Assembly: GCA_963771075.1 (NCBI GenBank)
Contig: CAVYSE010000020.1
Span: 11,385-75,384, forward strand
Direction of reading: 5' to 3'
From: a candidate division FCPU426 bacterium
Lineage (GTDB): Bacteria; Oederibacteriota; Muellerivitia; Muellerivitales; Muellerivitaceae
DNA length: 64,000 nt
The notes under the pieces are model-generated. The model saw nothing but the letters and a program-made list of their open reading frames with translations, was not told the origin of the DNA and ran no database searches. This document shows, piece after piece, positions 9,101-36,886 of this stretch (the first letter of the stretch is position 1; every line of letters begins with the position of its first letter). Position numbers and translations under genes: made by a program.

Positions 9101-11265
9101 TGGGCGCGGCCTCTGGCACCCTCAACCTGAGCGACGGCCAACTTTCGGCCTCCGACAACATCAATTTCAACGCCTCGAGAAACTTGGACCTGACCGGAAG
9201 CGGCGGCTTGTTGGATACCGAAGGCAACCAGATTACCTGGAACGGTGTCATTAGCGGCTCGGGAAACTTTGAGATCGGGGATGGCAGCCATTCCAGCACG
9301 GGGGCGGTGACCCTGACCAATGCCAATACCTATACCGGTTCCACCGTGGTCGATTTGGGCACCAGTCTGGTCCTCTCCGGCAATGGGACCTTGGGCGAGG
9401 GTATGCTGGGAGCTAATGGAACCGTCGATTTCAGCCTGACTAACGCCTCGGCCGTGGCGGGCACGCCCGTAACGGTTTCCTCCATCATCGGGAACGGCAA
9501 CCTCTACCTGGGCCGGATCGACCTGGTGACGGGGACCGATAACGCCAACGTGGAATTCGACGGGGTTATTTCCGACGGCGGGGCCGCAGGCGCGGGCGTC
9601 ACAGGCGCCTCGCTGACCAAGGTGGGTTCCGGGGCCTTGACCCTGACGGGCGAAAACACCTATAGCGGCGGCACGGTCCTTCAAAGCGGAACTCTCGTGG
9701 CGGGAAATAGCCAAGTGTTCGGCACTGGCGATGTGGCCCTCAACGGGGGTACCCTTCAGATCAGCGGGCCCCGGTCCCTGAACGTGGGGGGCAATTACAC
9801 CCAATCGGCCGGGGCGACCCTGGCCCTGGGCTTAGGCCCCATCGCGACTTCTTGGGACACCCTGGTGGTCGGGGGCACCGCCCACCTGGGCGGAACCCTG
9901 GAAGTGGTTTCCTACGGGGGGTTCGCCATTCACGACAACGAGACCTTCACCATCGTGGAGGCGGCCGGCGTGACCGGAACCTTCGGGAGCGTACAGGATT
10001 CCGTGCCCGGAGACGCGGTGTCGGTGGCCTACAACCCCACCGACGTGATCCTTTGCACACTGGCCAACGCGCCTTCATTCCATTCGTTGGGCACGACTTC
10101 CAACCAAAAACAGGTCGGCTCGGCCTTGGATAACCTGGCCACGGGTTCGGGTTCATCCGCCCTGATCACCTTCCTGAACAGCCAGTCCAATTCCGCCCTC
10201 CCGGGCGAAATGGAAAAATTGAGCCCGGCGGGATTAACTCCCCTTTTCCAGATGGGATACGCCTCGGCGGAAGTGCGGGGGCAGGCCATCAACGCGAGGC
10301 TGGAGGACCTCTTGGGTCTCACCAGCGTCTACGGCAACGGCCTGGCGAGGATGGGCGGAAGCCCGATGTTCGCCTCGACCCTGCCGGCGCGGGAGGAAGC
10401 GGGGATCGCCCGGCATGTTTCCGAGGACAACCGCCTGGGCGGGTTCCTGACCGGGCTGGGCGATTTCGGCACCGTCTCGGGCGATGGCAACGCTCCCGGT
10501 TACAGCTTTTCCACGGGAGGAGTGCAGGCGGGCATCGACTATTGGTTCGACCGCTCCCTGGTGGCCGGTCTTCTCTTCGGCTATGACCAGTCGGGAACCG
10601 GCACGGGAAGCACCGCCAGCGTCAGCGGCAGCGGGGAAATGGGAGGCCTCTACGCCGGATGGAAGGCGGATGAGCTTCGGATTTTGGCCCAGGTGACCGG
10701 CGGGCTGGACAACTACAGTACCCAGCGCGAGACGCTGGGCATGGGCGGGGTCAACGCCGTCGCCACGGGTTCGCCCCAGGGGGAACAACTGGGCGGGGAA
10801 CTGAAGGTGGCCTTGGACCTGACCGACGCCGGCCTGATCCTCTCTCCCTTCGCCTCGGGCCAGTATGGCTACGTGCAGGTGAACGCCTTCCAGGAAGCGG
10901 GAGGCGGGGTGCTGGCGCCCGAGTCCTTCCCGAACCAGGGGCAATCCTCCCTGTCGAGCCAATTGGGCCTCAAGATGGGGACGAGCTGGTACCTGGGAGA
11001 CTTCAGCCTGGCGCCCTCCATCAGCGCCGCCTGGGAACATTTCTTCCAGGGCGACCTGGACCAGATAACGGCTAATTTCGGGACCTCGGGTTCATCCTTC
11101 ATGGTGAGCGGACCCGCCACCGGGGCCGACGACGCCCTCTTGGGCGCCGGCTTGGAAGCACAGTTCTCCCGGCAAGTCACCTTTTTCGCCCAGTTCCAGG
11201 GCAGGGTGGGCATGACGAACGTGGATTCGAAGAATATTTCGGGCGGGGTGAACCTGGCTTTTTAA
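3190..11265 (+). pseudogene. Giant (~2690 aa if intact) classical autotransporter with Gly-rich (GGNGG / VDSS) repeat passenger and C-terminal autotransporter barrel. It is disrupted by four single-base frameshifts. Track ORFs 3103..4338, 4269..5180, 5201..6022, 5679..6443 and 6391..11265 are segments of one gene.
   Basis: ATG at 3190 after an AAGGGA ribosome-binding site, followed by a signal peptide MKNLFGIPALKISAFAVAALGFILG. The five successive ORFs in frames 1,0,2,0,1 all carry the same repeat family (LTVSGGVSLDSS..., GGNGGSDLNLGNGG...). Restoring one G in the G5 run at 4176-4180, one G in the G7 run at 5153-5159, one base near 5680, and removing one base near 6379-6386 makes one continuous frame. 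The C-terminus ends GGVNLAF with an autotransporter barrel homologous to ORF 2..2803. Confidence 0.8.
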
Positions 11266-11331
11266 GCGCCAGGTTGGGATGGGATCTTCTTGAGATCGGA
11301 AACAGTTGGAATATACACGGGATAGGCGGTC

Positions 11332-15725: not shown

Positions 15726-16477
15726 ATGTTTTCTGCTCGTTTGGTTTTGTTGGTTTTGATTATTGGAGTTTTACCTGCTTGTACTGGTAAAACAGGACCT
15801 GCTGGTCCTAATGGTTCAAACGGCACATCGGCGCCGAATACATTTGAGGCCATGTTCCAAAACGGTGTTTTCCCTTCGACTTCCTATACAGGTGAACTTG
15901 ACACTTGGGTGAACGGTGGTGCGCCAGGGCAAACGAAATCGCTTCGCCTTATCTTGAACTTAATACAGGTTCGGCCTATTCAGATTATTCAAGAATCTTG
16001 ATACGTTTTAATGTTTCTACGCTTCCGTTAAACGCTTCAATTGTTTCTGCTGAATTGTTACTTACAACGGAAACCCAAACAACTGTTAGTTCAAGCCCTA
16101 TTACCATTGGTTTGCATAATTTAGCAAATGATACCTTTTCGGCCTGTAATTGGCTATTTAATGCTAATTGGGGAGGGTGGAGCGGTAGTCAGAGTTGGAA
16201 TTTATGTACAGGGGATACCACTCCGCAACAGGAGGGATATATAAACCCAACCACGATCAGCACCGTTGTTTTCACATCCGCCAACAATTCCAAATCCCAA
16301 GTATTCAAGTGGAGCATCGACCCGACCATTGTTCAGGCCTGGGTGGCGGGTACTTACAACAACGGGTTAATTCTTAAGTCAGAGGGTGAGTTTGGCGAAC
16401 CGACTTCGGCGGTGGATTTCTACCCCTACACGGATACAACGGGCAAAGCGGCGCAACTCATTGTTGAATATCAATAA
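15726..16477 (+). CDS. Lipoprotein with collagen-like GPAGPNG stretch and DNRLRE-like domain. Frameshifted, joining ORFs 15726..16001 and 15905..16477.
   Basis: Lipoprotein signal (VLPAC). DTWVNGGAPGQ...YLELNTGSAYSDYSRILIRFNVSTLPLNASIVSAELLLT resembles the DNRLRE secreted-protein domain. The frame changes 0 to 2 near 15925-15935 at an A3 run, consistent with one missing A. Confidence 0.5.
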
Positions 16478-16492
16478 ACTAAAAGGTTAAAA

Positions 16493-16951
16493 ATGAAAAA
16501 ATTACTCAGCCTCATTCTCTTGGTGATGTTCCTGATGCCAATCGTTTCGCATGCGGAATCGTCCATTCGAGTGTTGGTAACTATTCGTGATGACAGCGAT
16601 TCGGCGAGTCAGTTTAAAAGTTTGATTATGGAACGGTTAACCGACATGAAAGATATTAGTGTCATGAATGACCCGAAAACCCAGACCGAAGATATGGAAC
16701 TGAAAATGGTATTGCTGGAACAGAAGAATGACAATGGCGATATCATCGGGTTCACCCTATCGATCGATACTTACAAAAACTGCAAATTTAACATACTGGA
16801 AATCATGACCGCCGATAATATCGACCGTTTAGGAAACATGGTTCTGGATTATTTGAAGACCAAAATATTTAAACCCTACCTGGATAATAAATTGTGGATT
16901 GACCCGAGTTTGAAGCCGAAACCCGCTGATGATAACGATATCAACCCTTGA
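16493..16951 (+). CDS. Small secreted protein, unknown function (low-GC island)
   Basis: Signal peptide MKKLLSLILLVMFLMPIVSHA. Charged, low-GC coding region. No recognisable domain. Confidence 0.6.
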   Translation: MKKLLSLILLVMFLMPIVSHAESSIRVLVTIRDDSDSASQFKSLIMERLTDMKDISVMNDPKTQTEDMELKMVLLEQKNDNGDIIGFTLSIDTYKNCKFNILEIMTADNIDRLGNMVLDYLKTKIFKPYLDNKLWIDPSLKPKPADDNDINP

Positions 16952-18789: not shown

Positions 18790-19440
18790 CTAATTGATCC
18801 GGTTGATGAAATTCATGACAGCGGCCTCGCTCACGAAGCCCGTCATCTGGGTGGCGGGCCCATTGTCTGGATATTGGACCACCAAGGTGGGGAAGCCGGT
18901 CACGTGGTATTTGGCCTGCAGGTCGGCGACCTCCGGCGGGTTCTGGCCCTGTTCCTGTTTCGCGTCCCACACCGCCACCGGCACATAATTTTCGTTGATC
19001 TTCGAGGCGTCCTGGGTGTTCTCGAAAACATTCTCCCTCATGCGTTTGCAGTAACCGCACCAATGGGCCGTAAAGGCGTAGAGGATCGGTTTCCGGCTCT
19101 GTTGGGACAAAGCCTGCCCCTGGGCGGGTTGTTGCCAGTCAATCGTGCCGCTTCCTAAGGAGCTTCCTCCAAAGGCCTTGGAAATCAAACATAATGGGAA
19201 CATTTGTCCGTGGTAACAGGCGGCCAGTATGTCGGTGAAAAGAAAACCCGACAGGCCCAGTGCCAAAAGAACCCTGCCAGCTTTCTTTTTGAACTCCGGG
19301 ATGCCCCAAATTATCGAGAAGCAGGCCGGGAGCAAACCCACTAGCGGTATTAGGGAAGCGGCTCCCACGGCGAAATGCCATTTTCCGATGGGGTTTCGGG
19401 GCGCTTGGTTACTTTTCCTGCGAACTTTGCGAGGTGTCAT
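18790..19440 (-). CDS. Membrane-anchored thioredoxin-fold protein (thiol:disulfide oxidoreductase-like)
   Basis: Two N-terminal hydrophobic segments followed by a WCGYCK active-site motif (thioredoxin CxxC) and a thioredoxin-like C-terminal fold signature (GFPTLVV). Confidence 0.75.
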   Translation of the reverse strand: MTPRKVRRKSNQAPRNPIGKWHFAVGAASLIPLVGLLPACFSIIWGIPEFKKKAGRVLLALGLSGFLFTDILAACYHGQMFPLCLISKAFGGSSLGSGTIDWQQPAQGQALSQQSRKPILYAFTAHWCGYCKRMRENVFENTQDASKINENYVPVAVWDAKQEQGQNPPEVADLQAKYHVTGFPTLVVQYPDNGPATQMTGFVSEAAVMNFINRIN

Positions 19441-19671: not shown

Positions 19672-19956
19672 TATGGTGGTAAAAGGTTACCAGGAACATG
19701 TTCCAATCCATTCCGCCTTGGGTGTCATGGATCGTCGCGGCTGAGAATTAAAATCAATCGGACGAATTATTTTGAAATTTACATTCCCGCCTCCGCAAGC
19801 TTGATAGTATCATTCATCAGGTTTAACGCCCCTTTTTGAAATTGAGGGGAAAGAAAAATAAAAAAATTAGGGGAGCCGCCATGAAGCATCAAGGGTGGAC
19901 TTTATTTCTCGTGTTGGTATTAGGCCAAGCCTTGGTCCTGTCCCACCTGGCCTGCG
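19672..19956 (+). repeat. Copy A of a duplicated ~285 bp leader plus signal-peptide segment (pairs with 22066..22345)
   Basis: Direct comparison: ...AAAGGTTACCAGGAACAT...GGGTGTCATGGATCGTCGCGGCTGA[G/A]AATTAAAATCAATCGG...TTGAAATTTACATTCCCGCCTC...TTGATAGTATCATTCAT...TTGAAATTGAGGGGA...ATGAAGCATCAAGGGTGGACTTTATTTCTCGTG... Confidence 0.8.
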
Positions 19957-21974
19957 GGAACGGCAATACCCCCACCAGCGCCCCCGCACCCGTGACGGTC
20001 GTTCAACTGGTGACGGCCACACCCACCCCCACAACTTCAGGCACTGCCCTATTCACGGCTACCTCCACAAAAACGATCACTTTAAGCCCCACCGTCACCA
20101 ATTCCCTTACGATTACCTTCACGCCCACCATCACGGGAACCTTCACCCAAACGAACACTCCCACGGTAACGAATACCCCCACCGCGACCTCGACTCCCAT
20201 GATCCTGTCGGTGGCAACCGTCCTCGGCACACCCGCGGACTCGACGCAGGCCCCCGGGGCGCAGAATGTGCCCATGATGCAGTTCAGCGTTAACAATCCC
20301 GGACCTGCCCCGGTGACCCTTTACGGATTTATTTTTCAATCCGTGGATTCAAGCAATGGGTCGCAAATATCGGGGGTCGCCCTTTTGAATTCCCAGGGAA
20401 CCCTGTTGGATAGCCGGGATTACAATTCGGGCTATGTGACGTTGGGAGGCGCTCCGCTAACGATCCTCGCAGGCGGTTCGGCTACTTTTGTGACGAATTA
20501 TAATTTTCAGGCGACGGCGGCGACCGGGGAATACAGCATGTCCCTGATGGGCATCAAGGGCCGGGATGACACCGGGCAGCTGGTCCAGGTCACAGGGGTT
20601 CCCGTGAGGGGCGCCCTGATCACGGTCGCGCAGTCGACCTTGGTCCCGACCAATAGCCCGACCAATAGCTTCACCTTCACTCCAACCTATACGGGAACCA
20701 TCACCCCGACGATCACCATGACCCCTCCCTTTACGGCGACTCCCACCCCGACTTCGACCCCCTACCTTTTGTCGGTGGCGACCCTCGCGGGTACGCCCTC
20801 GGCTTCGTTACAGATTCCCGGGGTGCAGAACGTGGCGGTGATGCAGTTGAGTGTGAACAACGCTGGATCAGCCCCAGTTACCTTATACGGATTGGTATTA
20901 CAGGCGGTCGATTCCACCTATGGGTCACAGATCGAGGCGGTGGATCTTTTAAACGCCCAAGGCGCCTTATTGGATAGCAAGCCGTTTGGCAATTCGGGTT
21001 ATGTGACCTTGGGAGGCGCACCCCTGACAGTGCCGGGGTCTGGCGCGGTGACCTTCGGGGTGAATTATGACTTTCAGGCGTCGGCCGGGAATGGAACCTA
21101 CACGGTGGGTTTGACGGGTTTGCGGGGAGTCGATGACACCGGCCAACCGGTACAGGTATCGGGGATTCCGGTGACGGGCGCGGCCATCTCGATCGCCCAA
21201 CCAACGGTGACTCAAACGGTCACCCCGACCAGCAGTCCCACCATCACCTTTACGCCCGCCAATACCTCCACGCCTTCTTGTCCAAGTGGGGAGTACAATT
21301 GCGGGGGCCAGTGCGTCAATTTTCAAACCGACAACAATAATTGCGGGGCCTGTGGGTTTGCCTGCGCCGCTGGACAAGTTTGTTCGGGCGGTTCTTGCCA
21401 ATTAAGCTGTGAGACCGGCGAGACGAATTGTTCCGGGCAGTGCGTCAACCTTCAAACGAGCGACCAAAACTGCGGGACCTGTGGACATGCCTGCGCCGCT
21501 GGACAAGTATGTTCGGGTGGTACTTGCGCCATTAGTTGTCAAAGTGGCTTAACGAATTGTTCGGGGGAGTGCACCAACCTGCAAACCGACAACAGCAACT
21601 GCGGAGCCTGCGCTCACCCATGCGCGGCCGGGCAAATATGTTCGGGCGGTTCTTGCCAATTAAGTTGCGAGAACGGAGAAACCGCTTGTTCCGGGCAGTG
21701 CGTCAACCTTCAAACGAGCAACCAAAACTGCGGGGCGTGTGGGGTTGCCTGCGCCTCTGGACAAGTATGTTCGAGCGGGAAATGCACAATTACCTGTCCT
21801 TCGGGCGAAACCGCATGCCCTTCTTCTAGCCCGACCGGTTGTTTCAATCTCTCCAATGATGTCAACAACTGCGGGTCGTGCGGGCATGTGTGCGCTCCCG
21901 GCCTGGATTGTGTTGGCAGTAGTTGCGTCAATACGGTGCCAACCGTAACACCGACCCCGACCGCCACGCCCTGA
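19881..21974 (+). CDS. Lipoprotein: two copies of a ~170 aa domain, Pro/Thr linkers, then seven tandem ~30 aa cysteine-rich repeats (C..G.T.C.G.C.NLQTD..NCG.CG..CA.GQ.CS.G.C)
   Basis: ATG at 19881 after an AGGGGAG ribosome-binding site. MKHQGWTLFLVLVLGQALVLSHLACG lipobox. Internal duplication (LSVATVLGTPADSTQAPGAQNVPMMQFSVNNPG... twice). Seven CxxC-type repeats at 21290-21960. Confidence 0.8.
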   Translation: MKHQGWTLFLVLVLGQALVLSHLACGNGNTPTSAPAPVTVVQLVTATPTPTTSGTALFTATSTKTITLSPTVTNSLTITFTPTITGTFTQTNTPTVTNTPTATSTPMILSVATVLGTPADSTQAPGAQNVPMMQFSVNNPGPAPVTLYGFIFQSVDSSNGSQISGVALLNSQGTLLDSRDYNSGYVTLGGAPLTILAGGSATFVTNYNFQATAATGEYSMSLMGIKGRDDTGQLVQVTGVPVRGALITVAQSTLVPTNSPTNSFTFTPTYTGTITPTITMTPPFTATPTPTSTPYLLSVATLAGTPSASLQIPGVQNVAVMQLSVNNAGSAPVTLYGLVLQAVDSTYGSQIEAVDLLNAQGALLDSKPFGNSGYVTLGGAPLTVPGSGAVTFGVNYDFQASAGNGTYTVGLTGLRGVDDTGQPVQVSGIPVTGAAISIAQPTVTQTVTPTSSPTITFTPANTSTPSCPSGEYNCGGQCVNFQTDNNNCGACGFACAAGQVCSGGSCQLSCETGETNCSGQCVNLQTSDQNCGTCGHACAAGQVCSGGTCAISCQSGLTNCSGECTNLQTDNSNCGACAHPCAAGQICSGGSCQLSCENGETACSGQCVNLQTSNQNCGACGVACASGQVCSSGKCTITCPSGETACPSSSPTGCFNLSNDVNNCGSCGHVCAPGLDCVGSSCVNTVPTVTPTPTATP

Positions 21975-21997
21975 CGGGAACTACGTCCAGAGTAAGC

Positions 21998-22018
21998 CCT
22001 CCCCCGACGGGGGAGGGA
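21998..22018 (+). terminator. Perfect 9 bp GC hairpin (CCCTCCCCC-gac-GGGGGAGGG) 24 nt after the lipoprotein stop; possible terminator lacking a U-tract
   Basis: Read directly from the sequence. No T-run follows, so intrinsic-terminator function is uncertain. Confidence 0.3.
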
Positions 22019-22065
22019 AGTGCCGGTTATCCAATCATCCACCGGTGTGAGACGGCTAAAACCAT

Positions 22066-22345
22066 GGTGGAAAAAGGTTACCAGGAACATATCCAAATCC
22101 TTTACGCCTTGGGTGTCATGGATCGTCGCGGCTGAAAATTAAAATCAATCGGTGAATTAATTTGAAATTTACATTCCCGCCTCTACAAGATTGATAGTAT
22201 CATTCATGAAGTTCGACGCCCCCTTTTTGAAATTGAGGGGAATGTAAATAAAAAATTAGGGGAGCCGCGATGAAGCATCAAGGGTGGACTTTATTTCTCG
22301 TGTTGGTATTAGGCCAAGCCTTGGTCCTGTCCCACCTGGCCTGCG
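22066..22345 (+). repeat. Copy B of the duplicated leader plus signal-peptide segment
   Basis: See copy A. It contains a plausible extended -10 promoter element, TTGATAGTAT. Confidence 0.8.
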
Positions 22346-23907
22346 GGGGCGGAAACAACAACCCGACGACTCCTGGCGGCAATAATAACGGGTCCAACCC
22401 AACCTCAACCTTTACCACGACCGCCCAAGCGACCAACACCCAGACTTCCAGCCCTACCTTCACGAAAACCCTTGTCAATTCGCCCAGCCCCACCTTGACC
22501 CTCACGAACACCCCGACCAACTCGCCCACGGGCACTCCCACTGTTACCTCCACCCCGACCTTGACGGGAACCATCACGAACACGCCAGTCTTCACCGCTA
22601 CCGGCACCATCACCGGCACGCCGACCTCCAGCTCGACTGAAACGGCCACCGATGTTCCTAGCGGCACCCCCACAACCACGTCCACTACCACGTCCACCCC
22701 CATCATGACCGGAACCCTCACCTTTACCGCGACCGCTGACCCTTCCGATACGCCTACCGCCAGTGGGACCCCAACCGCGACCTTAACCCAAACGGATACA
22801 CCCACGGACTTGCCCACAAGCACGCCGACCGACCTGCCCTCCGCCACGCCCACCCAAACCTCGACCTCGACGGTGGGAATTGGTTCCGCTTGCTCGTACG
22901 ACAGTGACTGCGCCACCGGGGATTATTGCTCGGGCGTGACCTGCGCGGCGAAATTGAACCAAGGCAATGTTTGCTCGGCGGCCGATCAATGTATAACCGG
23001 TAATTGTGTGGATGGTTATTGTTGTAATACCGCTTGCGGAAGTGGTGTTTGTTCGGCGGTCCTAAAGGGCGGAGGATCGAATGGGGTTTGTGGTTGTATA
23101 GCGATTGGCCTTCCATACCCCTTGAGTCCCAATCAATGCTGTACCAGTTACGGGGCAGGCGGGGTTTGCCAAAACGCGCCAACACTCACGCCCACCGTTA
23201 CCCCGACCTCCACGCCGTCCGCGACCCCCACCTCCACACCCACCGCCAGCCCCACCGTTACCTTAACCGGCACTTTCACTCCCACGCCTGGGTCGAACGG
23301 TGTGACCTGGACTTTCTCGGATTGCGGGTCGGGCAGTTCCGGCCCCACGGACGGATGGATTCAGGCCTCCCCGACATCCCCTTCAACTTTGGTTTCCATT
23401 CAAACCATCACGGGTTTGGGTAGTGGGCTTGTTGGTTCAAGCACTTGCGGATTGGCTTTCTATCTCCCCGGAGGCGCCATGTCGAATGGTATGTGTAGCT
23501 GGCAGTCAACGGGGACGGACATCGAGACAGTTTCGGCCTACGCTAACTTATCTGTACCCATCAACTGGACCCAAAACGGGTTAACCACGATATCCCTTCA
23601 ATTTACCTATAATGGTTATGGAGCCGGTATCCAACCGATCATCGTGGCGGGTTCCGGTCCGACGACTTACAGTGGAACCGTCGTTAATGACAACCAAAGT
23701 TCACCCAGTTGGTTGACGGCCATCTTTAGTCCATCCTTCAACGGTTCTGATGGAACCCAAGTTTTGGCGGCCGGTTTAGTTGTGAACGAAATGGCTCCAC
23801 CCCTCTCCATGCCCAATCCACATCCCCCCCCCGCTACTATTTGCGCGCCGTCCGGTGAAGAATTGGGCCCTGAAACCATATACGTTGATAACATTGAATT
23901 TTATTGA
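22270..23907 (+). CDS. Paralogous lipoprotein: identical signal peptide, Pro/Thr/Ser-rich region, Cys-rich module, C-terminal beta-rich domain
   Basis: The first ~25 codons and ~200 bp of upstream leader are near-identical to gene 19881..21974. Cys-rich GSACSYDSDCATGDYCSGVTCA...CCNTACGSGVC region. Confidence 0.8.
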   Translation: MKHQGWTLFLVLVLGQALVLSHLACGGGNNNPTTPGGNNNGSNPTSTFTTTAQATNTQTSSPTFTKTLVNSPSPTLTLTNTPTNSPTGTPTVTSTPTLTGTITNTPVFTATGTITGTPTSSSTETATDVPSGTPTTTSTTTSTPIMTGTLTFTATADPSDTPTASGTPTATLTQTDTPTDLPTSTPTDLPSATPTQTSTSTVGIGSACSYDSDCATGDYCSGVTCAAKLNQGNVCSAADQCITGNCVDGYCCNTACGSGVCSAVLKGGGSNGVCGCIAIGLPYPLSPNQCCTSYGAGGVCQNAPTLTPTVTPTSTPSATPTSTPTASPTVTLTGTFTPTPGSNGVTWTFSDCGSGSSGPTDGWIQASPTSPSTLVSIQTITGLGSGLVGSSTCGLAFYLPGGAMSNGMCSWQSTGTDIETVSAYANLSVPINWTQNGLTTISLQFTYNGYGAGIQPIIVAGSGPTTYSGTVVNDNQSSPSWLTAIFSPSFNGSDGTQVLAAGLVVNEMAPPLSMPNPHPPPATICAPSGEELGPETIYVDNIEFY

Positions 23908-24584
23908 TCAGCTTCACTAAAGCGCGATCCCTGAAAGGATTTGACCTATCAAGCGGTATCGTTCAATCCCCGGGTTCCCGTTAATTGTGTCGGCAATATT
24001 TTCACATGCCTGCGGTACCAGTGAAAAAAGGGGCAAAACCCCTTTTTCCATCCTGCTACCTCACCCTGAGGCGGCGTGACAAATAACCGGGCCGGAAAAA
24101 ATTTCAGGTTTTGAATTTCTGCTTTCTGCCAAATCACGCCTTCCCATGGCTTCTTTACCAAACACCGACCCACTAGGAGAAACATTTGTTGGCGGCCGAG
24201 ACCAATGAAAATTAAAATCAATCGTACGAAGCCCATCATCTGGGTGGTGTCCACCCAATTGGCCAAAGCCACCCTGTGGGACTCAGTTATCAAATTTAAG
24301 GGTTTTTTGAAGATTTTGGTAAATCAACTCTTTTGCCGTTTGATTTCTTCCCCATCGGAAAGTTCGCTTTCCCTCCTGTCCGGCTTCAGGCCGGTCCCAG
24401 GGCCTAAAGCGGCCAGATGAGGGACGGCATTCTCAGAAATACCCCTAATTCCCTTATTTGAATTCGTGGCTTGGTCACGAATTACCCTCCTTCGGGGCCT
24501 ACAGCGCCTAATCGTACGGCAGAACTCTTCGAAATCCCTTCATTTTGTGTGACCGTAATACGGGCTCGTAAGGCCATCGCTTCG

Positions 24585-24692
24585 AGGTATGGGAGGGGTA
24601 ATAGCCGAAGCGCCCGCCCAACCTTTTCCGAGGCAGACCCTTACCGGTCCGTAATGCGTCTTTGGGTCAGTATCGGGTTGGCGCTTTGCATT
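24585..24692. repeat. Diverged direct repeat copy 1 (~110 bp). Conserved core CGGTNNGTAATGCGTCTTTGGGTCAG[T/G]ATCGGGTTGGC.
   Basis: Aligned by eye to 25155..25258. The core 38-mer is near-identical. Flanks are similar but diverged. Confidence 0.6.
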
Positions 24693-24907
24693 GGAATATG
24701 CACAATCCGACTGCCCGAGTCCTCATAAAAGAAAATCCTCAAAAAACCCTTAAAAATGGCATTCGCCCGGCGAATGCGAAAAATAAGGGTTTTTCGCGTG
24801 GATGGTTTGGGTACTAATAGACCCTTTAAAATAAGGGATTTGCTTGTCCGAGGATCGGACAAGTGGAAATAAGGGAATTGGCCATCTCCTGGGAAAAGCC
24901 AGGGCTC

Positions 24908-24946
24908 GTTGCCAATTAACGTCAGGGCCTGACGTTAATTGGCAAC
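24908..24946. repeat. Perfect 39 bp palindrome: GTTGCCAATTAACGTCAGG-G-CCTGACGTTAATTGGCAAC (19 bp arms, 1 nt centre)
   Basis: Verified base by base. Candidate dimeric DNA-binding-protein site or RNA hairpin. Confidence 0.9.
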
Positions 24947-25154
24947 AAGAATCACCCCACATCTAAAACAAGGGAGTTCTAATTCGGAGTATCCGATTTA
25001 TAAAATAAGGGTTTTTTGAAAACCGAGGGAAGCCTTTTGGCATTGGCCGACCTTTGGGACTAAACCGGCCAAATGGGATAAAGCCAAATCAGAAATACTC
25101 AAATTTCCCTTATTTTTAGTGTTCGTAATACGAACAATCAAATCCCTAGCTTCA

Positions 25155-25258
25155 TGGTTGAGGAGGAGCAGAAGACGATGCGCCCGGGTTACCTTCTCCC
25201 GGTCAAACCCTAATCGGTTTGTAATGCGTCTTTGGGTCAGGATCGGGTTGGCCCGGAT
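25155..25258. repeat. Diverged direct repeat copy 2
   Basis: See copy 1. Confidence 0.6.
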
Positions 25259-26040
25259 CAGGGTTTCGATGGCCTGGTAGTTTGCGAACCAGCCCTTATC
25301 ACAAACGCCATGGTCAATCGGGGTTTATCAGGACTCCATCGTCAGGGGCTTGGTCGGATCGGGTTGAACTATCGCGGGGTAACAAAGGGCCCGGGCTGGA
25401 TCTTTTGTTCACGAAAATGAAAAAGCCCGAACAATTTTGCCCAGGCTTATTTCAACTAAACAATAAAACTAATTACTTCTTTTTCTTCTTGGCGGGTTTC
25501 TTCTTCGTGGCCACAGTGGACCTCCTTAAGTTTTAAAATCATATTGATATTAACATACTTTACCGAGAATTTTATATTTTTAATTTCAAAAAAAGAAATG
25601 TACTTCAACCGCATTTTATATTTTTTCGAAAGCAGTCGGAATGTGCGCAGAACTTGGAACAGGAATTCTTTAGAGCTTATATCCTCGGGGGCGTTAAATA
25701 GTCACGGAGTTTGCGATTAGCCACGACGGGCCATGTAGCTAAGCGCAAGCGCATGCTACAGGGCGGGGAACCACATTGGACATCTCCCAAAACGCTTTTG
25801 AACAATGTTTTCTAATAAAATCTTCCGCCCTGTAATACCTCTTCATAATTCATTGATAAAACCAGCCTAAATACCATTCTTTTGGATTTGTCAAAATCTC
25901 TTAGTGGTGTAATCATTGTTTTTACAGGCTTTTTTGTTGAATCCCTAACTGATTGAAAATAACGTAATTTTTTTGGAATAAACGGTTTCCCTCCGTCCTT
26001 TAATAGGTAGAGGAGGGGTTAGGTTAATGGAGGTATCCAT

Positions 26041-26619
26041 TTGGATGACCGGGCCTTGGTTCAAGGGCTCTTAAGTAAGGAGGGGTCTTCCGAGCGGTTC
26101 TTCTTCCATACCTACCGTCCCAAACTTTACCGCATCGCGACCTTCATCCTGGGATACAACGACCCCGAGGTGGAGGACGTGGTTCAGGAAACTTTCCTGG
26201 CCGCGCTCCAGGACCTCCCCAAATTCAAGTTCCACTGCGATTTTTTCCGCTGGTTGCGCCGCATCTGCGTTTACCGGTGTTACGAACGCATCCGCCGGAG
26301 GAAACGCCAGGCCGTCAGCGCCCACGAGGAGCTGGAAAATCTAACCCACCGGGCCGCAGTGGAAAAGGAAGATTCGAGGGCCAGGGAAGTGGAAGAACAC
26401 GATCTTTTGAAAGTTCTCCGGGAAGAGATCGCAGGTTTGGGGAAAAAGTGCCGGGAAATTCTCGAGCTGCGGGACCGGCGTGGAAAAAATTACGCGGAGT
26501 TATCCAAACTCCTGAAAGTTCCCATCGGCACCGTGATGTCCCGCCTGGCCCGGTGCAAGGAAACACTGAAGGAACGGGTGTTCAGGGCGGCCCGAAAAAG
26601 GGGGCTCCTCGATGGATAA
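26041..26619 (+). CDS. ECF-type RNA polymerase sigma-70 family factor
   Basis: TTG start 8 nt after GGAGG. Sigma-70 region 2 (..YRIATFILGYNDPEVEDVVQETFLAA..) and region 4 helix-turn-helix (..YAELSKLLKVPIGTVMSRLARCKETL..). It overlaps the downstream anti-sigma gene by 8 bp. Confidence 0.85.
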   Translation: MDDRALVQGLLSKEGSSERFFFHTYRPKLYRIATFILGYNDPEVEDVVQETFLAALQDLPKFKFHCDFFRWLRRICVYRCYERIRRRKRQAVSAHEELENLTHRAAVEKEDSRAREVEEHDLLKVLREEIAGLGKKCREILELRDRRGKNYAELSKLLKVPIGTVMSRLARCKETLKERVFRAARKRGLLDG

Positions 26620-27349: not shown

Positions 27350-30300
27350 ATGAAGTTTAATCCAATGGGCGGGAATGGCTCCACTATAACCCCGGAGGAA
27401 TCATTTTTGGGTCGTAAATCCTAAGGATCCCTAGGCGTATTCTGGGCATTCCTTTTAGTCGCCGGAGGGTGGTTGTTGAGCCCGGGCGCCATCGCCCAAA
27501 CAAATACTCCGACCCTGACCGTGACGATGACTTCGACCCCGGCTCCCGTCACGGTGGAACTGACGCCGGATGTAGCGCTCTCTAACGCCACCCAAGCCCC
27601 GGGAGCGGCCAATGTCCCGGTCAGCGAGCCCTTTATTATCAACTTGTATGGACAGCAGCCCGTCACTTGGACCGCATTGACCGTGACCGCATCAGGGACG
27701 GGAAACACTGCCGGTATTACCAGTCTTCAGGTTTATCTGGACAACGATTACAGCGGCACCGTCGATGCGGGGGACACTCTCCTGGGTGCGGGCACTTTCA
27801 GCGGTTCGACCGCCACTATCCCCCTGAGCTACATTCTTTCCCCCGACGGTTTTGGTTCGTTCCTGGTTGTCGCCAATTTCTCCTCGAGCGCCGTTACTGG
27901 CACCTACGCTTTCAACATCACGGGAATGACTGGATCCTCCAATCTGCCCGTGGCCTTTACCGGTTTACCCTTCGCGGGAGTCACCATCACGATCCCCGGC
28001 CCCACGCCCACCGTGACCAATACCAGAACCATTTCCTCCACGCCGACCTCCACCCTTACTTCGACTATCACCTTGACAGCGACCGTCACCAACACCCCTT
28101 CTGGTACCTGGTATGCCACCCCCTGGACCAACACCCCCATCCCCCCAAATTCCTATACGCCAACCCCTATATTCACTTATACCCCCACGCCGGGATGGTT
28201 CAACGTGGCGTTAGGGCCCAATTCACCGACTTTTAACAATCCCTTATTGGTGGGTACCAGTAATCTCCCGGTGATCCAAGTTGTGTTGAGGAATGATAGC
28301 GGCTATTCCGCCACACTCACTGGATTGACCTTTACGGATACGGGCTCGGGCACTCCCTCTTCCGGTATTGACAGCTTCCAGCTTTATAACGACCTCAACG
28401 GAAACGGAATCGTGGACAATGGGGAACCCTTGTTGGGCGCCGCGAGTTTTACCGGTTCGACCGCCACCTTCAGTTTCACCCAGAACCTGGCGGCCGCCAC
28501 TGGAAGTGTGACCTTGCTGGCTGTCGCCGAATTCGCGTCAACGGGAAGTACGGGAACCTATACCTTCAGCGTCACGGGAGGCTCCGGATTCAACGGTTTG
28601 GGCGGCCCGGAGGGTTTCAGCAACCTTCCAGCCACCGGTGCGCCTATCACTATCACCTACCCCACGCCCACCCTGACTTCAACCAACAGCTACACACCCA
28701 CCGCTACCACCTCGGCCACCCCCAGCCCGACGAGCACCCCGACCAACTTGGGAGGCTTTACCTCCACGCCCACTCCCTGCGTCCCCGTTCTCCAATCCAG
28801 CTATACCTTCGACACGGGAACCGAGTGTTGGAGAACTTGGGGCGGGCCGGTAGGTTCTGTCCTACAGTGGGATTCAGTAGATGGCCATACCAATCCCGGT
28901 TCCTTGGAGGCCATCCTGCCCTATACGTCCGGCAGTGTCAGCCAGGCCCTGATTTTCCTGGACTTGTCCTCCGCGCCCCCGTGACCATTCCGGCGGGAAG
29001 CACCCTCAGTTTCTGGTATAAGGCCTCCACCTCGGTGGGAAACCTGCAAGTTTTCGATGCGAGCGTCACCCAGGGAAGCGGTGGACCCGTTTCCTACGTG
29101 TGGAACGATGGCAGCTGGCAATCCAGCCTGGCCACTTCCTGGACCCCGGTGACCTTTACCATGAACCCGGCGGGCCCCAACGCGGTGGAGGAGTTCGGGT
29201 TGCAAGTGCCGGCTGCGGCTGGCTCCATCACATCGCCGGTGACGGTTTGGGTCGACGATGTGACGATCAACCTGGCCGGATCGTTCACGGCCACACCGAC
29301 CGTTGGATCTACCTCGTCCAGTTGCTATCTTTTTGCGACCCAATGGGGAGGTTACGGCACTGGGGACGGTACATTTAGCGAAACCACGGGCGTGGCGGTG
29401 GCTCCTTCCGGAAACGTTTATGTGGTGGACGCCGAGAACTACCTCATCCAGGAATTCACATCGAGCGGGTCTTTCTTGACCCAATGGGGAGGATCGGGTA
29501 CCGGGTACGGGAAATTTGCCTTTCCCTGGGGGGTGGCGGTGGCCTCCTCTGGAAACGTTTATGTGACGGATATTGAAGACAACCTGATCCAGGAATTCAC
29601 CTCGAACGGGACCTTCTTGACCCAATGGGGAGGCTCGGGAAACGGGTATGGGTTCTTCACGGCTCCCTATGGCGTAGCCGTGGCCCCCTCGGGAAACGTA
29701 TATGTGGCGGATACCGAGAACAACCTCATCCAGGAATTCACCTCGAGCGGGTCTTTCTTGGCCCAATGGGGAGGCGCAGGATCCGGAAACGGATTTTTCG
29801 ACTATTCCTTGGGGGTGGCGGTGGCTCCCTCGGGAAACGTTTATGTGGCGGATTTCGGGAACAACCTCATCCAGGAGTTCACATCCGGCGGGTCCTTCGT
29901 GACCCAATGGGGAGGTAACGGCACAGGGAACGGGAAGTTTGCCTATCCCTATGGCGTGGCGGTGGCCCTCTCAGGAAACGTATATGTGGCGGATACCGAG
30001 AACAACATCATCCAGGAATTCACATCGAACGGGTCTTTCTTGACCCAATGGGGAGGCTTAGGAGCCGGAAACGGGTTATTCGACTATCCCTTGGGTGTGG
30101 CAGTGGCACCTTCGGGAAATGTATATGTGGCGGATTATGGGAACGATCTTGTCCAGGAGTTCACCTCCTGCCTTTCCCCCACGCCCACGAGCAGCCCGAC
30201 GGCCACCGTCTCTCCCACGCCTACCAGCACCAATCTAGGGGGCCTGACCTCCACCGTGACGAAGACCCCCACGACCACGGTCACCGCGACCATCACGTCC

Positions 30301-34501: not shown

Positions 34502-36886
34502 ATGGAAACGATGAGAAGGGTTATAAAGATGGCCGGTTTTTTAGCCTTTATTTTTGGAGGCTTGGGAATCGGTTCGGGGCTATGGGCACAATATTCGAAT
34601 GAGGATGGGAGCGGCGATTTATGGACGGGAACGGGCTCCTCCGCCTCCGGGAATTGGAGCACCGCCACCGGTGAGTACAGCACCGCCACTGGGACAAGCA
34701 GCTCGGCATACGGACAGGCTGCCACGGCCAGCGGGCTGAGCAGCATCGCCATCGGGAATCTGAGTAATGCCGGAGCGAGTTGGACTACCGCCGTTGGATC
34801 GGAAAGCAACGCCGCCGGACTGGGCAGCTCGGCCTACGGGGATGCCGCCACCGCCACAGGAACTAGCAGCACCGCCCTCGGCAATAACAGCACTGCCAGC
34901 GGGAATTGGAGCACGGCCACCGGAGAGGGCAGCAACGCTGGGGGAACTTCCAGCGCTGCTTACGGGCAATCCGCCACCGCCACCGGATCGGGTAGCATAG
35001 CCATCGGGAATCAGAGCAACGCCAGCGGGAATTGGAGCACGGCTACCGGAGAAGACAGCAACGCCCTCGGGATTTCCAGCTCCGCTTACGGGCAAGCCGC
35101 CACGGCCAGCGGGAATTGGAGTACCGCCGTTGGGAATTTAAGCTCCGCCAGCGCGACTGACAGCACCGCCCTCGGCAATAACAGCACCGCCAGTGGAAAC
35201 TGGACCACCGCCGTGGGCGAAAACAGCAGCGCCAGCGGGGTTGCCAGCTCTGCTTATGGGCAAGCCGCCACTGCCAGCGGGCTGAGCAGCATCGCTATCG
35301 GGAATCAGAGCAATGCCGAAGGAAACTGGAGTGTCGTTGTCGGCTCGGACAGCAGCGCCACCGGGACTTCCAGCGCCGCCTATGGTCAATCCGCCACCGC
35401 CACCGGATCGGAAAGCATTGCTATCGGGAACAAGAGTAACGCCACTGGGAACTGGAGCGCCTCCGTGGGTGGAGACAGTACCGCTAGCGGAACTTCCAGC
35501 GACGCTTTCGGGCAGGGTGCCACGGCGAGTGGGAACTGGAGCACCGCCATCGGGAATTTAAGCTCTGCCAGCGCCACCGACGCTACCGCCATCGGAAATT
35601 CCAGCACAGCCAGCGGAAACTGGAGCACAGCCACCGGCCAGGGCAGCATGGCCAGCGGGGCGAACAGCACTGCGATTGGGGTAGGGAGTTCAGCCTCAAA
35701 TTATGGAAGCTCAGCTTTTGGAGCTGGCGCCACCGCCACGGGATCCTACGGCACCGCCACAGGATATGAAAGTAATGCGGTTCAAGCGGGCGATACCGCC
35801 TATGGTGTCAGCGCCATCGCTAGCGGATATTTAAGCACGGCCACGGGTTTTGCAAGCAATGCCAGCGGTTGGGAAAGTACCGCTACTGGAGTAGCCTGCA
35901 CGGTCATTGGGGATTACAGCACCGCCACGGGGTCTTTCAGTACCGCAAGCGGGACTAATTGCACCGCGAACGGATACGGAAGTAGCGCGAGTATTTATAA
36001 CAGCACCGCCACGGGATATGAAAGCATGGCATCAAATTCCTTCAGCACCGCATATGGGGCGGAAGCCATAGCCAGCGGTGAGAACAGCACTGCCACTGGA
36101 TTTTTAAGCACCGCCAGTAATACATACAGCACGGCTACAGGATGTAACAGCAATGCGAGTGGGTTGAATAGTACTGCCGCCGGTTTTAGCAGTAACGCCA
36201 GAGGTAGCAACAGTACCGCTACTGGCTCTTACAGCCAGGCCACCACAACGAATAGTTCGGCTTATGGCGTCAGCGCAATCGCAAGCGGTATCAACAGTAC
36301 TGCAACAGGAACAAACAGCACCGCCGTCAACCAAGGGGACACGGCTTACGGTGGATTCGCCACCGCAAACGGTTCTTTTAGCACATCCCTGGGGGAATAC
36401 AGCGCCTCCACGGGCGTCAATAGCACCGCAGTGGGGTCCGGAAGTATCGCCAGCGGAAATAACAGCACGGCCATCGGGGCTAATAGCGTGGCGAGCGCGA
36501 ACAATAGCGTCGCCTTGGGGACGGGGTCCTTGGCGAACCAACAAAATATCGTCTCGGTCGGAAACGCCAACACCGGTTTGACCCGCCGCATCACCAACGT
36601 GGCGCCTGGAGTAGCCAGCACCGACGCGGCCAACGTGGGGCAGTTGACCAGTTCCGCCCAGACGGCCGGGGTCATGGTGGGGGCGGCCGCCAACGCTTCC
36701 ATGGGATTGATGGGGCTTCCAGGCGCGACTCGGGTGGCCCTGGGCACGAGCGTCATGGGCAACCAGGTGGGGATGGGCCTGGCCGTACAAAGGAGCTTTG
36801 ATAGTTGGGCCGCCTCCCTGAGTACCTCCACCGATGGAAATCTTGATTACATGCAGGTAGGCGGCTCGGTCGGTATCAGCTTTTAA
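34502..36886 (+). CDS. YadA-like trimeric autotransporter adhesin (type Vc)
   Basis: Signal peptide. More than 40 head repeats of the S.A.G..S.A.G type (NSTASGNWSTATGEGSNAGG...). Neck/stalk motif NVAPGVASTDAANVGQL. C-terminal membrane anchor ending ...VGGSVGISF. Confidence 0.85.
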   Translation: METMRRVIKMAGFLAFIFGGLGIGSGLWAQYSNEDGSGDLWTGTGSSASGNWSTATGEYSTATGTSSSAYGQAATASGLSSIAIGNLSNAGASWTTAVGSESNAAGLGSSAYGDAATATGTSSTALGNNSTASGNWSTATGEGSNAGGTSSAAYGQSATATGSGSIAIGNQSNASGNWSTATGEDSNALGISSSAYGQAATASGNWSTAVGNLSSASATDSTALGNNSTASGNWTTAVGENSSASGVASSAYGQAATASGLSSIAIGNQSNAEGNWSVVVGSDSSATGTSSAAYGQSATATGSESIAIGNKSNATGNWSASVGGDSTASGTSSDAFGQGATASGNWSTAIGNLSSASATDATAIGNSSTASGNWSTATGQGSMASGANSTAIGVGSSASNYGSSAFGAGATATGSYGTATGYESNAVQAGDTAYGVSAIASGYLSTATGFASNASGWESTATGVACTVIGDYSTATGSFSTASGTNCTANGYGSSASIYNSTATGYESMASNSFSTAYGAEAIASGENSTATGFLSTASNTYSTATGCNSNASGLNSTAAGFSSNARGSNSTATGSYSQATTTNSSAYGVSAIASGINSTATGTNSTAVNQGDTAYGGFATANGSFSTSLGEYSASTGVNSTAVGSGSIASGNNSTAIGANSVASANNSVALGTGSLANQQNIVSVGNANTGLTRRITNVAPGVASTDAANVGQLTSSAQTAGVMVGAAANASMGLMGLPGATRVALGTSVMGNQVGMGLAVQRSFDSWAASLSTSTDGNLDYMQVGGSVGISF

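Follow-up and report, generated by a model that had tools for sequence, protein, structure and literature searches.

In Borrelia burgdorferi, the erp genes (ospE/ospF/elp) carry a common promoter/leader module, with its "upstream homology box," on diverse mature parts (PMC10016077). The vsp genes of Mycoplasma bovis are clustered lipoprotein genes, each with a highly conserved 5' non-coding sequence of about 70 bp and a conserved 31-aa signal peptide, after which the mature regions are variable and repetitive (PMC3365025). We describe here two neighboring genes, A and B, in a 64,000-nt stretch of DNA (the window) from a candidate division FCPU426 bacterium (contig CAVYSE010000020.1). The two genes share a sharply bounded duplication at their 5' ends and have identical signal peptides followed by unrelated mature domains, and the same architecture recurs at a second locus. 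In modular secreted enzymes such as cellulases, domains are shuffled through Thr/Pro-rich linkers, and linkers of this kind also separate the domains of A and B.

The two copies of the duplicated unit (cassettes A and B; Table 1) were aligned by blastn over 295 columns with 90.8% identity (E 3e-114). A repeat search reported the same region as three abutting families of direct repeats at a spacing of 2389 to 2391 nt, which blastn joined into one alignment, and a MAFFT alignment of both cassettes agreed with the blastn repeat. Similarity sets in abruptly at (T/C)ATGGTGG, about 208 nt 5' of each ATG, and ends just past codon 26 at ...CTGGCCTGCGGG, which encodes Cys-Gly. A first-pass annotation of this DNA had described a duplicated cassette of about 285 bp ahead of the two genes, nearly identical from about 210 bp 5' of the ATG through the lipobox. 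All three methods bear this out, and the duplication is confirmed as real and far beyond chance. The upstream part is identical at 185 of 210 positions (88%, with 4 gap columns counted), and the signal-peptide coding part at 78 of 78 (Fisher p 5e-4).

Contigs of this organism are present in several public metagenome assemblies, and both cassette-to-gene junctions are confirmed as genuine, each having been recovered in an independent assembly. An ENA contig (L003) spans cassette A and the thioredoxin-like gene that lies upstream and reaches 260 nt into gene A, and its cassette is identical to that of the window. An NCBI contig (L012, from GCA_052915985.1) begins at window position 22087, inside cassette B. 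It spans gene B, a non-coding block and the genes for an extracytoplasmic function (ECF) sigma factor and its anti-sigma factor, with 99.7% identity to the window. None of its 17 differences falls in the cassette or in the short third box discussed below. Two Logan contigs end at window position 19743, right after a 31-nt stretch that the two copies share without a mismatch, which is how a de Bruijn assembler behaves at a true repeat. Repeats of this sort explain why contigs break systematically at these loci when short reads are assembled.

The mature domains of A and B are indeed unrelated, as the first-pass annotation had stated. Gene A contains two internal copies of a domain of about 150 aa, to which no family was assigned, and five Cys-rich repeats that resemble Stig1/MXAN_6577 (Pfam Stig1, E 4.8e-27). 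It scored 183.7 bits against NCBIfam NF041328, for which the cutoff is 100. Gene B has a different Cys-rich module, at aa ~205 to 300, and a C-terminal domain of about 210 aa. No Pfam family was found for gene B, and a profile search with it returned 774 library matches at E<=0.001, the best-scoring of them mostly to the Cys-rich module. Between the mature parts of A and B, BLASTP found a match only in the low-complexity Thr/Pro linkers and, loosely, in the Cys-rich stretches (best E 1e-4), and the domain content differs. An alignment of the gene A domain searched against genome contigs gave no confirmed loci, nor did an alignment of the gene B C-terminal domain searched against metagenome contigs. 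Each gene is followed by a hairpin in RNA folding predictions. The one after gene A has no U-tract, and the one after gene B resembles a canonical terminator, with a z score of -3.5 and 0 of 200 shuffles folding equally well. These predicted hairpins are compatible with separate transcription units and possible read-through.

In a screen of all open reading frames in the window, the signal peptide MKHQGWTLFLVLVLGQALVLSHLACG was carried by genes A and B only. It has the general features required by PROSITE rule PS51257 (Lys or Arg in the first 7 residues, an uncharged hydrophobic stretch, Cys at 15 to 35), with K2, an uncharged stretch G15-L20 and Cys25. However, its lipobox reads S-H-L-A-C, and the His at -3 lies outside the set allowed by the PS51257 pattern, [LIVMFWSTAG](2)-[LIVMFYSTAGCQ]-[AGS]-C. 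A relaxed lipobox expression matched only after H, P and Q had been added to the pattern. The earlier description of A and B as lipoprotein genes is thus drawn from an atypical lipobox. Judged from these features, lipidation of both proteins at Cys25 is likely.

In its architecture, the window pair resembles both erp and vsp, and it is a member of neither family. As in erp, a conserved promoter/operator region and a lipoprotein leader appear to be fused to mature parts of independent origin, and similarity stops a few residues past the putatively lipidated Cys. Here, 88% upstream identity and 26 of 26 identical leader residues stand ahead of unrelated mature parts. However, erp consists of many alleles on the cp32 prophage plasmids of a host-associated spirochaete, and it has characterized operator-binding proteins and demonstrated co-expression. 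Genes A and B are two tandem chromosomal genes of an uncultivated environmental bacterium, likened to erp by architecture and not by sequence comparison, and the scanned open reading frames of the neighborhood include no phage genes. As in vsp/vlp, each member has a conserved 5' non-coding region and signal peptide. In the vsp loci, by contrast, the members are many, and phase variation is driven by a site-specific recombinase encoded next to them. The window has two members only, with a conserved upstream part about three times longer than that of vsp. No switching machinery was found: there is no recombinase domain in the scanned open reading frames, there are no inversion sites, the genes are in direct orientation, and the A-tracts are 6 to 7 nt long. 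The Thr/Pro linkers that part the domains recall linker-mediated shuffling, and gene B and its relative at the second locus differ in their combination of domains, the relative having no Cys-rich module. Unlike in modular enzymes, the unit that would be shuffled here includes non-coding regulatory DNA and an export signal.

The second locus, L006, is a 5.8-kb contig (ena:ERZ25039528:contig_39218) from the same ENA sample as L003. The exhaustive profile search with gene B had led to this contig through a protein encoded on it (P0026), with 82% identity to the last 142 residues of gene B. Two genes for AraC-type regulators lie on L006 just upstream of a tandem pair of lipoprotein-like genes, and this pair shares a front end of about 280 bp as a direct repeat of its own. 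Each of its cassettes comprises upstream DNA of about 198 nt, a Shine-Dalgarno site rich in G and the 26 codons of the signal peptide MIRSFILMCSGLAALFL(I/F)SA(M/L)PFGCG, and ends at Cys-Gly. The lipobox region reads M-P-F-G-C, with Pro at -3. The coding part is again the better conserved, with 73 of 78 positions identical (94%) versus 76% upstream (p 6e-4). We found no homology between the L006 and window cassettes, since local and global alignment scores equaled those of shuffles. The similar-looking 5' ends of the window and L006 cassettes, ATGGTGGAAAAAG and ATGGGAAAAAG, were rejected as a sign of homology for the same reason.

The first L006 gene has a C-terminal domain of the gene B type, 81% identical in nucleotides and 82% in amino acids. 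The Cys-rich module of gene B is missing from it, in keeping with a shuffling of whole domains at linkers. The second L006 gene is unrelated to gene A. One passenger domain type thus stands behind two unrelated front ends, each common to the neighboring gene, which suggests that front ends and passengers re-assort. The occurrence of the gene-B-type domain behind the unrelated L006 cassette is, among the comparisons made, the strongest evidence for such putative re-assortment. The second L006 gene was called at 4196 to 5008, and its reading frame shifts near 5000, where an assembly error or a pseudogene is possible.

The mature N termini are alike across the unrelated cassettes (CGNGNTPTS, CGGGNNNPTTP, CGGSQNSNPTS and CGSGNNNPSSP), and protein P0141 begins similarly with CGVPKNNPTSP. 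The common start, C-G-x-G/S-N/Q-N-x-N-P-T/S-T/S, is encoded at 19959 to 19990 and 22348 to 22385 in the window and at 2803 to 2840 and 4274 to 4310 in L006, and it is found in P0141. This recurrence suggests a common tether or sorting segment, perhaps specific to the lineage.

Conservation in the upstream part of the window cassettes is block-wise, with blocks identical at 31 of 31, 23 of 23 and 17 of 17 positions against the 88% background. The conserved blocks are AAAGGTTACCAGGAACAT, the 31-nt CGCCTTGGGTGTCATGGATCGTCGCGGCTGA, the box GCTGAGAATTAAAATCAATCGG, TTTGAAATTTACATTCCCGCCTC, TTGATAGTATCATTCAT, CCCCTTTTTGAAATTGAGGGGAA and AAAAAATTAGGGGAGCCGC. All of the leader motifs that had been listed as common to both copies (TTGATAGTAT, TTGAAATTTACA, TTGAAATTGAGGGGA and GCTGA[G/A]AATTAAAATCAATCGG) were found in both. 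The extended -10 element proposed among them, TGATAGTAT, is conserved in the two copies, but its likeness to a promoter is one of consensus only. The sigma-70 scan demands a -35 hexamer and so did not report it, and no promoter was placed. If TGATAGTAT were the promoter, a leader of about 63 nt would result, in which the Shine-Dalgarno site would follow a small hairpin and an A-rich tract. The small hairpin is conserved, with a folding energy like that of shuffles (z -0.2 and -0.5), and the A-tract is A7 in one copy and A6 in the other.

Table 1. Features of the duplicated cassettes, the genes behind them and related elements. Positions are those of the window, except for the L006 repeat, which is numbered on its own contig.
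Feature	Position	Strand	Description
Thioredoxin-like (DsbH/TlpA-type) gene	18790..19440	-	Divergent from gene A, outside the repeat; Pfam Thioredoxin_2, E 1.6e-14, and NCBIfam
Cassette copy A	19673..19966	+	About 208 nt of upstream DNA, Shine-Dalgarno site and 26-codon export signal of gene A
ECF-promoter-like GGAAC-N16-CGCC	19693..19717; copy B 22084-22108	+	5' edge of cassette; speculative
Box GCTGAGAATTAAAATCAATCGG	19740..19761; copy B 22131-22152	+	From alignment
Candidate extended -10, TGATAGTAT	19802..19810; copy B 22192-22200	+	Within fully conserved 17-nt block TTGATAGTATCATTCAT
Conserved small hairpin, CCCCUUUUUGAAAUUGAGGGG	19829..19849; copy B 22219-22240	+	Folding energy like shuffles
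Shine-Dalgarno site, GGGGAG	19870-19875; copy B 22259-22264	+	After the A-rich tract 3' of hairpin CCCCUUUUUGAAAUUGAGGGG
Gene A	19881..21974	+	Export signal, Thr/Pro linkers, two ~150-aa domains, five Cys-rich repeats; from open reading frame list
Signal peptide A, MKHQGWTLFLVLVLGQALVLSHLACG	19881..19958	+	Cys25, lipobox-like L-A-C, His at -3; read from sequence
Hairpin CCCUCCCCC/GGGGGAGGG	21997..22017	+	9 bp, G+C, between gene A stop and cassette B, no U-tract; RNA folding
Cassette copy B	22064..22355	+	Counterpart of copy A, ahead of gene B
Gene B	22270..23907	+	Export signal identical to A, long Thr/Pro linker, Cys-rich module, C-terminal domain; from open reading frame list
Signal peptide B	22270..22347	+	Identical to A, 78/78 nt
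Terminator-like hairpin AAAAAGGGG-CAAAA-CCCCUUUUU	24024..24049	+	3' of gene B; RNA folding
Composite patch	24206..24247	+	25-nt copy of cassette box (24206-24230) and 22-nt copy of thioredoxin-like gene 3' end (24226-24247)
L006 direct repeat	2527-2834 and 4000-4302		78.9% identity, E 1e-69

Three further features of the upstream part were noted. A short open reading frame of 23 codons (MV[V/E]KGYQEH...) opens at the repeat boundary. We rejected it as a conserved leader peptide because 5 of its 7 substitutions are nonsynonymous, and no homologue was found. An inverted repeat of 21 nt (22158 to 22178 and 22238 to 22258, 86% complementary) encloses the -10-like element in cassette B. It was considered as an invertible promoter and rejected, because only copy B has it and no more than 59 nt lie between its arms. 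In cassette A it is degraded, and so it is probably not functional. A perfect 12-nt palindrome, GGAACATGTTCC, at 19692 to 19703 occurs in cassette A only, where copy B reads GGAACATATCCA.

The explanation that we favor, and consider reasonably probable, is that A and B carry a duplicated 5' gene module that would have arisen by local duplication and linker shuffling and would give the two genes shared regulation and export. The module is the unit of about 290 bp that sits ahead of these tandem genes. It is made up of the whole proximal upstream region (about 208 bp), the site for ribosome binding and an N-terminal export signal of 26 residues, the last two of them Cys-Gly. After local duplication of this module, recombination would have taken place in the Thr/Pro-linker DNA, which begins right after the Cys and parts every domain, and front ends and passenger domains could re-assort at these linkers. 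A and B would each retain a separate set of these start signals for transcription and translation and of the export signal, and they are thus predicted to be under the same control and to be routed identically. The route would be export by Sec, probably lipidation at Cys25, and then display on a Thr/Pro stalk. Purifying selection on the signals for export and translation, perhaps with some help from gene conversion, would fit the 100% identity of the Shine-Dalgarno and signal-peptide part, compared with 88% in the upstream DNA. The earlier proposal that a module was copied between surface-protein genes gains support from the two-gene unit and the unrelated L006 pair, although each cassette has only two copies. 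A more far-reaching form of the idea strikes us as unlikely on present data. It holds that Thr/Pro-linker DNA is a recombination hotspot, that front ends are regularly re-assorted with passengers, that homogenized cassettes tie neighbors into co-regulated sets, and that the mature N terminus C-G-x-G-N-N-N-P-[TS]-[TS] is possibly a lineage-specific sorting tether.

If the favored explanation is true, uncultivated environmental bacteria also build sets of surface lipoproteins by reusing one promoter/leader/signal-peptide module, a practice whose documented cases have come mainly, to date, from host-associated spirochaetes and mycoplasmas. Shared 5' modules would then predict co-regulated and co-exported surface proteins in genomes without genetics. 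The finding opens no new mechanism and is a fresh example of a known design principle.

Several observations weigh against a functional, re-assorting module. Each cassette was seen in two copies only, so that any "family" rests on pairs. Self-comparison of the whole 64 kb found the duplication and no further full copy. An exact 26-mer from the start of the signal peptide had 0 matches in a genome contig collection, and a metagenome contig collection likewise gave 0 matches to an exact 25-mer taken from the best-conserved block of the upstream part. These two scans are weak, because the source genome seems to be absent or masked there; the window's own copies were not returned either. A 41-aa signal-peptide query gave no candidates and was uninformative, since a 45-aa control query with the L006 signal peptide was also empty, although a gene with this N terminus had been called on L006; negatives from short queries of this kind are not to be relied on. 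Gene A, gene B and the small open reading frames of the cassettes were also looked up by exact match, which returned no record, or L003 only. No shared 5' modules were found in four more distant relatives (L007, L009, L010 and L011), and the two adjacent lipoprotein genes of L011 have different signal peptides. The shared front-end architecture thus appears from these comparisons to be recurrent in the lineage, not universal. In 5.1 kb, the scan for sigma-70 pairs of the TTGACA-N16-18-TATAAT type detected 2 sites versus 2.6 expected, which is chance level; one of the 2 (TTGAAA-18-AAAAAT) falls in copy B. Lipidation at Cys25 is not certain, because the His at -3 departs from PS51257. Lastly, zero differences at about 20 synonymous sites has P~0.08 under the upstream divergence rate, so that the data call for neither gene conversion nor special constraint, and a plain tandem duplication in which the 3' part was then replaced would look no different.

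That last point leads to the alternative in which the cassettes are a passive relic. One gene would have been duplicated in tandem, one mature part would have been replaced or would have diverged, and the remaining similarity would reflect recency, with no further role. There are only two copies, adjacent and in direct orientation, and the upstream divergence of 12% (24% in the older L006 pair) resembles ordinary decay. The lack of synonymous change is only marginally unexpected, and the cassettes show no RNA family, significant structure or enriched promoter motif. This alternative overlaps largely with the favored explanation and differs only in denying a functional consequence. However, the architecture returns with identical boundaries at L006, and the block-wise upstream conservation hints at constraint. 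We regard a passive relic as unlikely.

A narrower proposal, made in the first-pass annotation, was that the two genes may be co-regulated, perhaps through the ECF sigma factor whose gene starts at 26041. If so, the GGAAC-N16-CGCC motif at the 5' edge of the cassette would be read by that factor. The motif lies in the same place in both copies, its flanks are conserved, and its 16-nt spacer has kept its length even though it is the most variable stretch. Both L006 cassettes have a similar motif, G(T/G)AACC-N16/17-C(G/A)CT, close to their 5' edge (found post hoc), and the ECF sigma/anti-sigma pair (sigma gene at 26041 to 26619) is 2.1 kb downstream of the window pair. However, the -10 part is CGCC and not the usual CGT, and the pattern carries little information, matching 18 times in the window and mostly within coding sequence. 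It was not found 5' of the ECF sigma gene, where it should stand if that gene regulates itself as expected, and the neighbors of the L006 pair are AraC-type regulators, not an ECF sigma factor. No clear tie between the cassette and the gene at 26041 emerged, and we consider control by its product doubtful.

It seems more improbable still that the cassettes serve surface variation, either by offering homology at which gene conversion or deletion would switch the mature protein, or through phase variation at the A-tract. The layout of conserved 5' non-coding DNA and signal peptide with variable mature parts is that of vsp and erp (PMC3365025, PMC10016077), about 100 nt at 100% identity could stem from gene conversion, the A-tract differs between copies, and the neighborhood is dense in surface proteins. 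However, no recombinase or invertase is among the open reading frames scanned around the locus. Recombination between direct copies would only delete gene A, irreversibly. The same arrangement was found in independent assemblies of several samples, with no variants within the cassettes. Tracts of A6 to A7 are short for slipped-strand switching, and the inverted repeat in copy B is confined to that copy and encloses only 59 nt.

Very unlikely, in our judgment, is a cis-regulatory RNA, in which the leader of about 200 nt would act as a riboswitch or thermosensor, or would mask the Shine-Dalgarno site in a helix, and would be preserved by duplication. In both copies, the 31-nt block (19712 to 19742) is predicted to pair over a long range with the Shine-Dalgarno and start-codon region, and in an L006 hairpin two C-to-U changes keep the pairing through G-U wobble, as judged by eye. 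However, Rfam 15 gave no match at the gathering score in the window and none in the cassettes even at E<=1. The leader folds have z scores of only -1.7 and -1.3, which are not significant, and the predicted helix shows zero compensatory pairs and no covariation. Its duplex energy was equaled or beaten by 45% of arbitrary genomic windows. Finally, short-read contigs do break inside the repeat, but an assembly artefact is effectively refuted by the recovery of both junctions in independent assemblies and by the 12% upstream difference that marks the copies as distinct loci, and the end of a mobile element, for which there is no transposase, terminal inverted repeat or target-site duplication and which would have to stop precisely at the codon boundary after the export signal, is likewise of negligible probability.

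A third copy of the cassette box had been reported at 24207, in the non-coding block. It is real and not due to chance, since three matches were obtained in 0 of 100 shuffles, but it is a fragment of 19 to 25 nt and not a third cassette. The 19-mer TGAAAATTAAAATCAATCG at 24206 to 24224 matches copy B exactly, and the 25-nt version matches copy A with two mismatches. None of the remainder of the cassette is present around it. The adjoining 24226 to 24247 matches 18833 to 18854, at the 3' end of the thioredoxin-like gene, in 21 of 22 nt. The two fragments overlap by ACGAA, and their order is reversed relative to the source, where the thioredoxin fragment stands upstream of the box. We read this patch as a probable small rearrangement scar, or filler, from two nearby sequences rather than as a regulatory site; that the box is a short protein-binding motif is nonetheless conceivable.

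The patch lies in a 2.1-kb region without a convincing gene (23908 to 26040), where the G+C content is 42 to 49% versus 56% overall. This region contains a diverged tandem duplication (24389 to 24682 and 25045 to 25252, about 71 to 73% identity, with a 32-nt core at 97%), a near-perfect 22-nt palindrome (24905 to 24949) and inverted repeats (24295 to 24317 and 24732 to 24754). An Rfam search of the region gave no match above noise.

The thioredoxin-like gene divergent from gene A encodes a membrane-anchored protein, which may help to form or isomerize disulfides in the Cys-rich A and B proteins. The neighborhood is packed with repetitive surface-protein genes (29337 to 30171 and 34641 to 35673 are among the sites). 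It includes two autotransporters whose beta-domains are 73% identical (1743 to 2807 and 10202 to 11269), an NHL-repeat protein with internal repeats of about 141 nt, a YadA-like adhesin, Sel1/TPR proteins and C-terminal domains of the FlgD_ig type. When the window was compared with L003, which is nearly identical elsewhere, 152 of 169 differences fell in a 600-nt stretch of an uncharacterized gene at 15800 to 16400. L003 has an extra paralogous segment with 78% identity to 15771 to 16540, and the stretch appears from this comparison to be a strain-variable hotspot.

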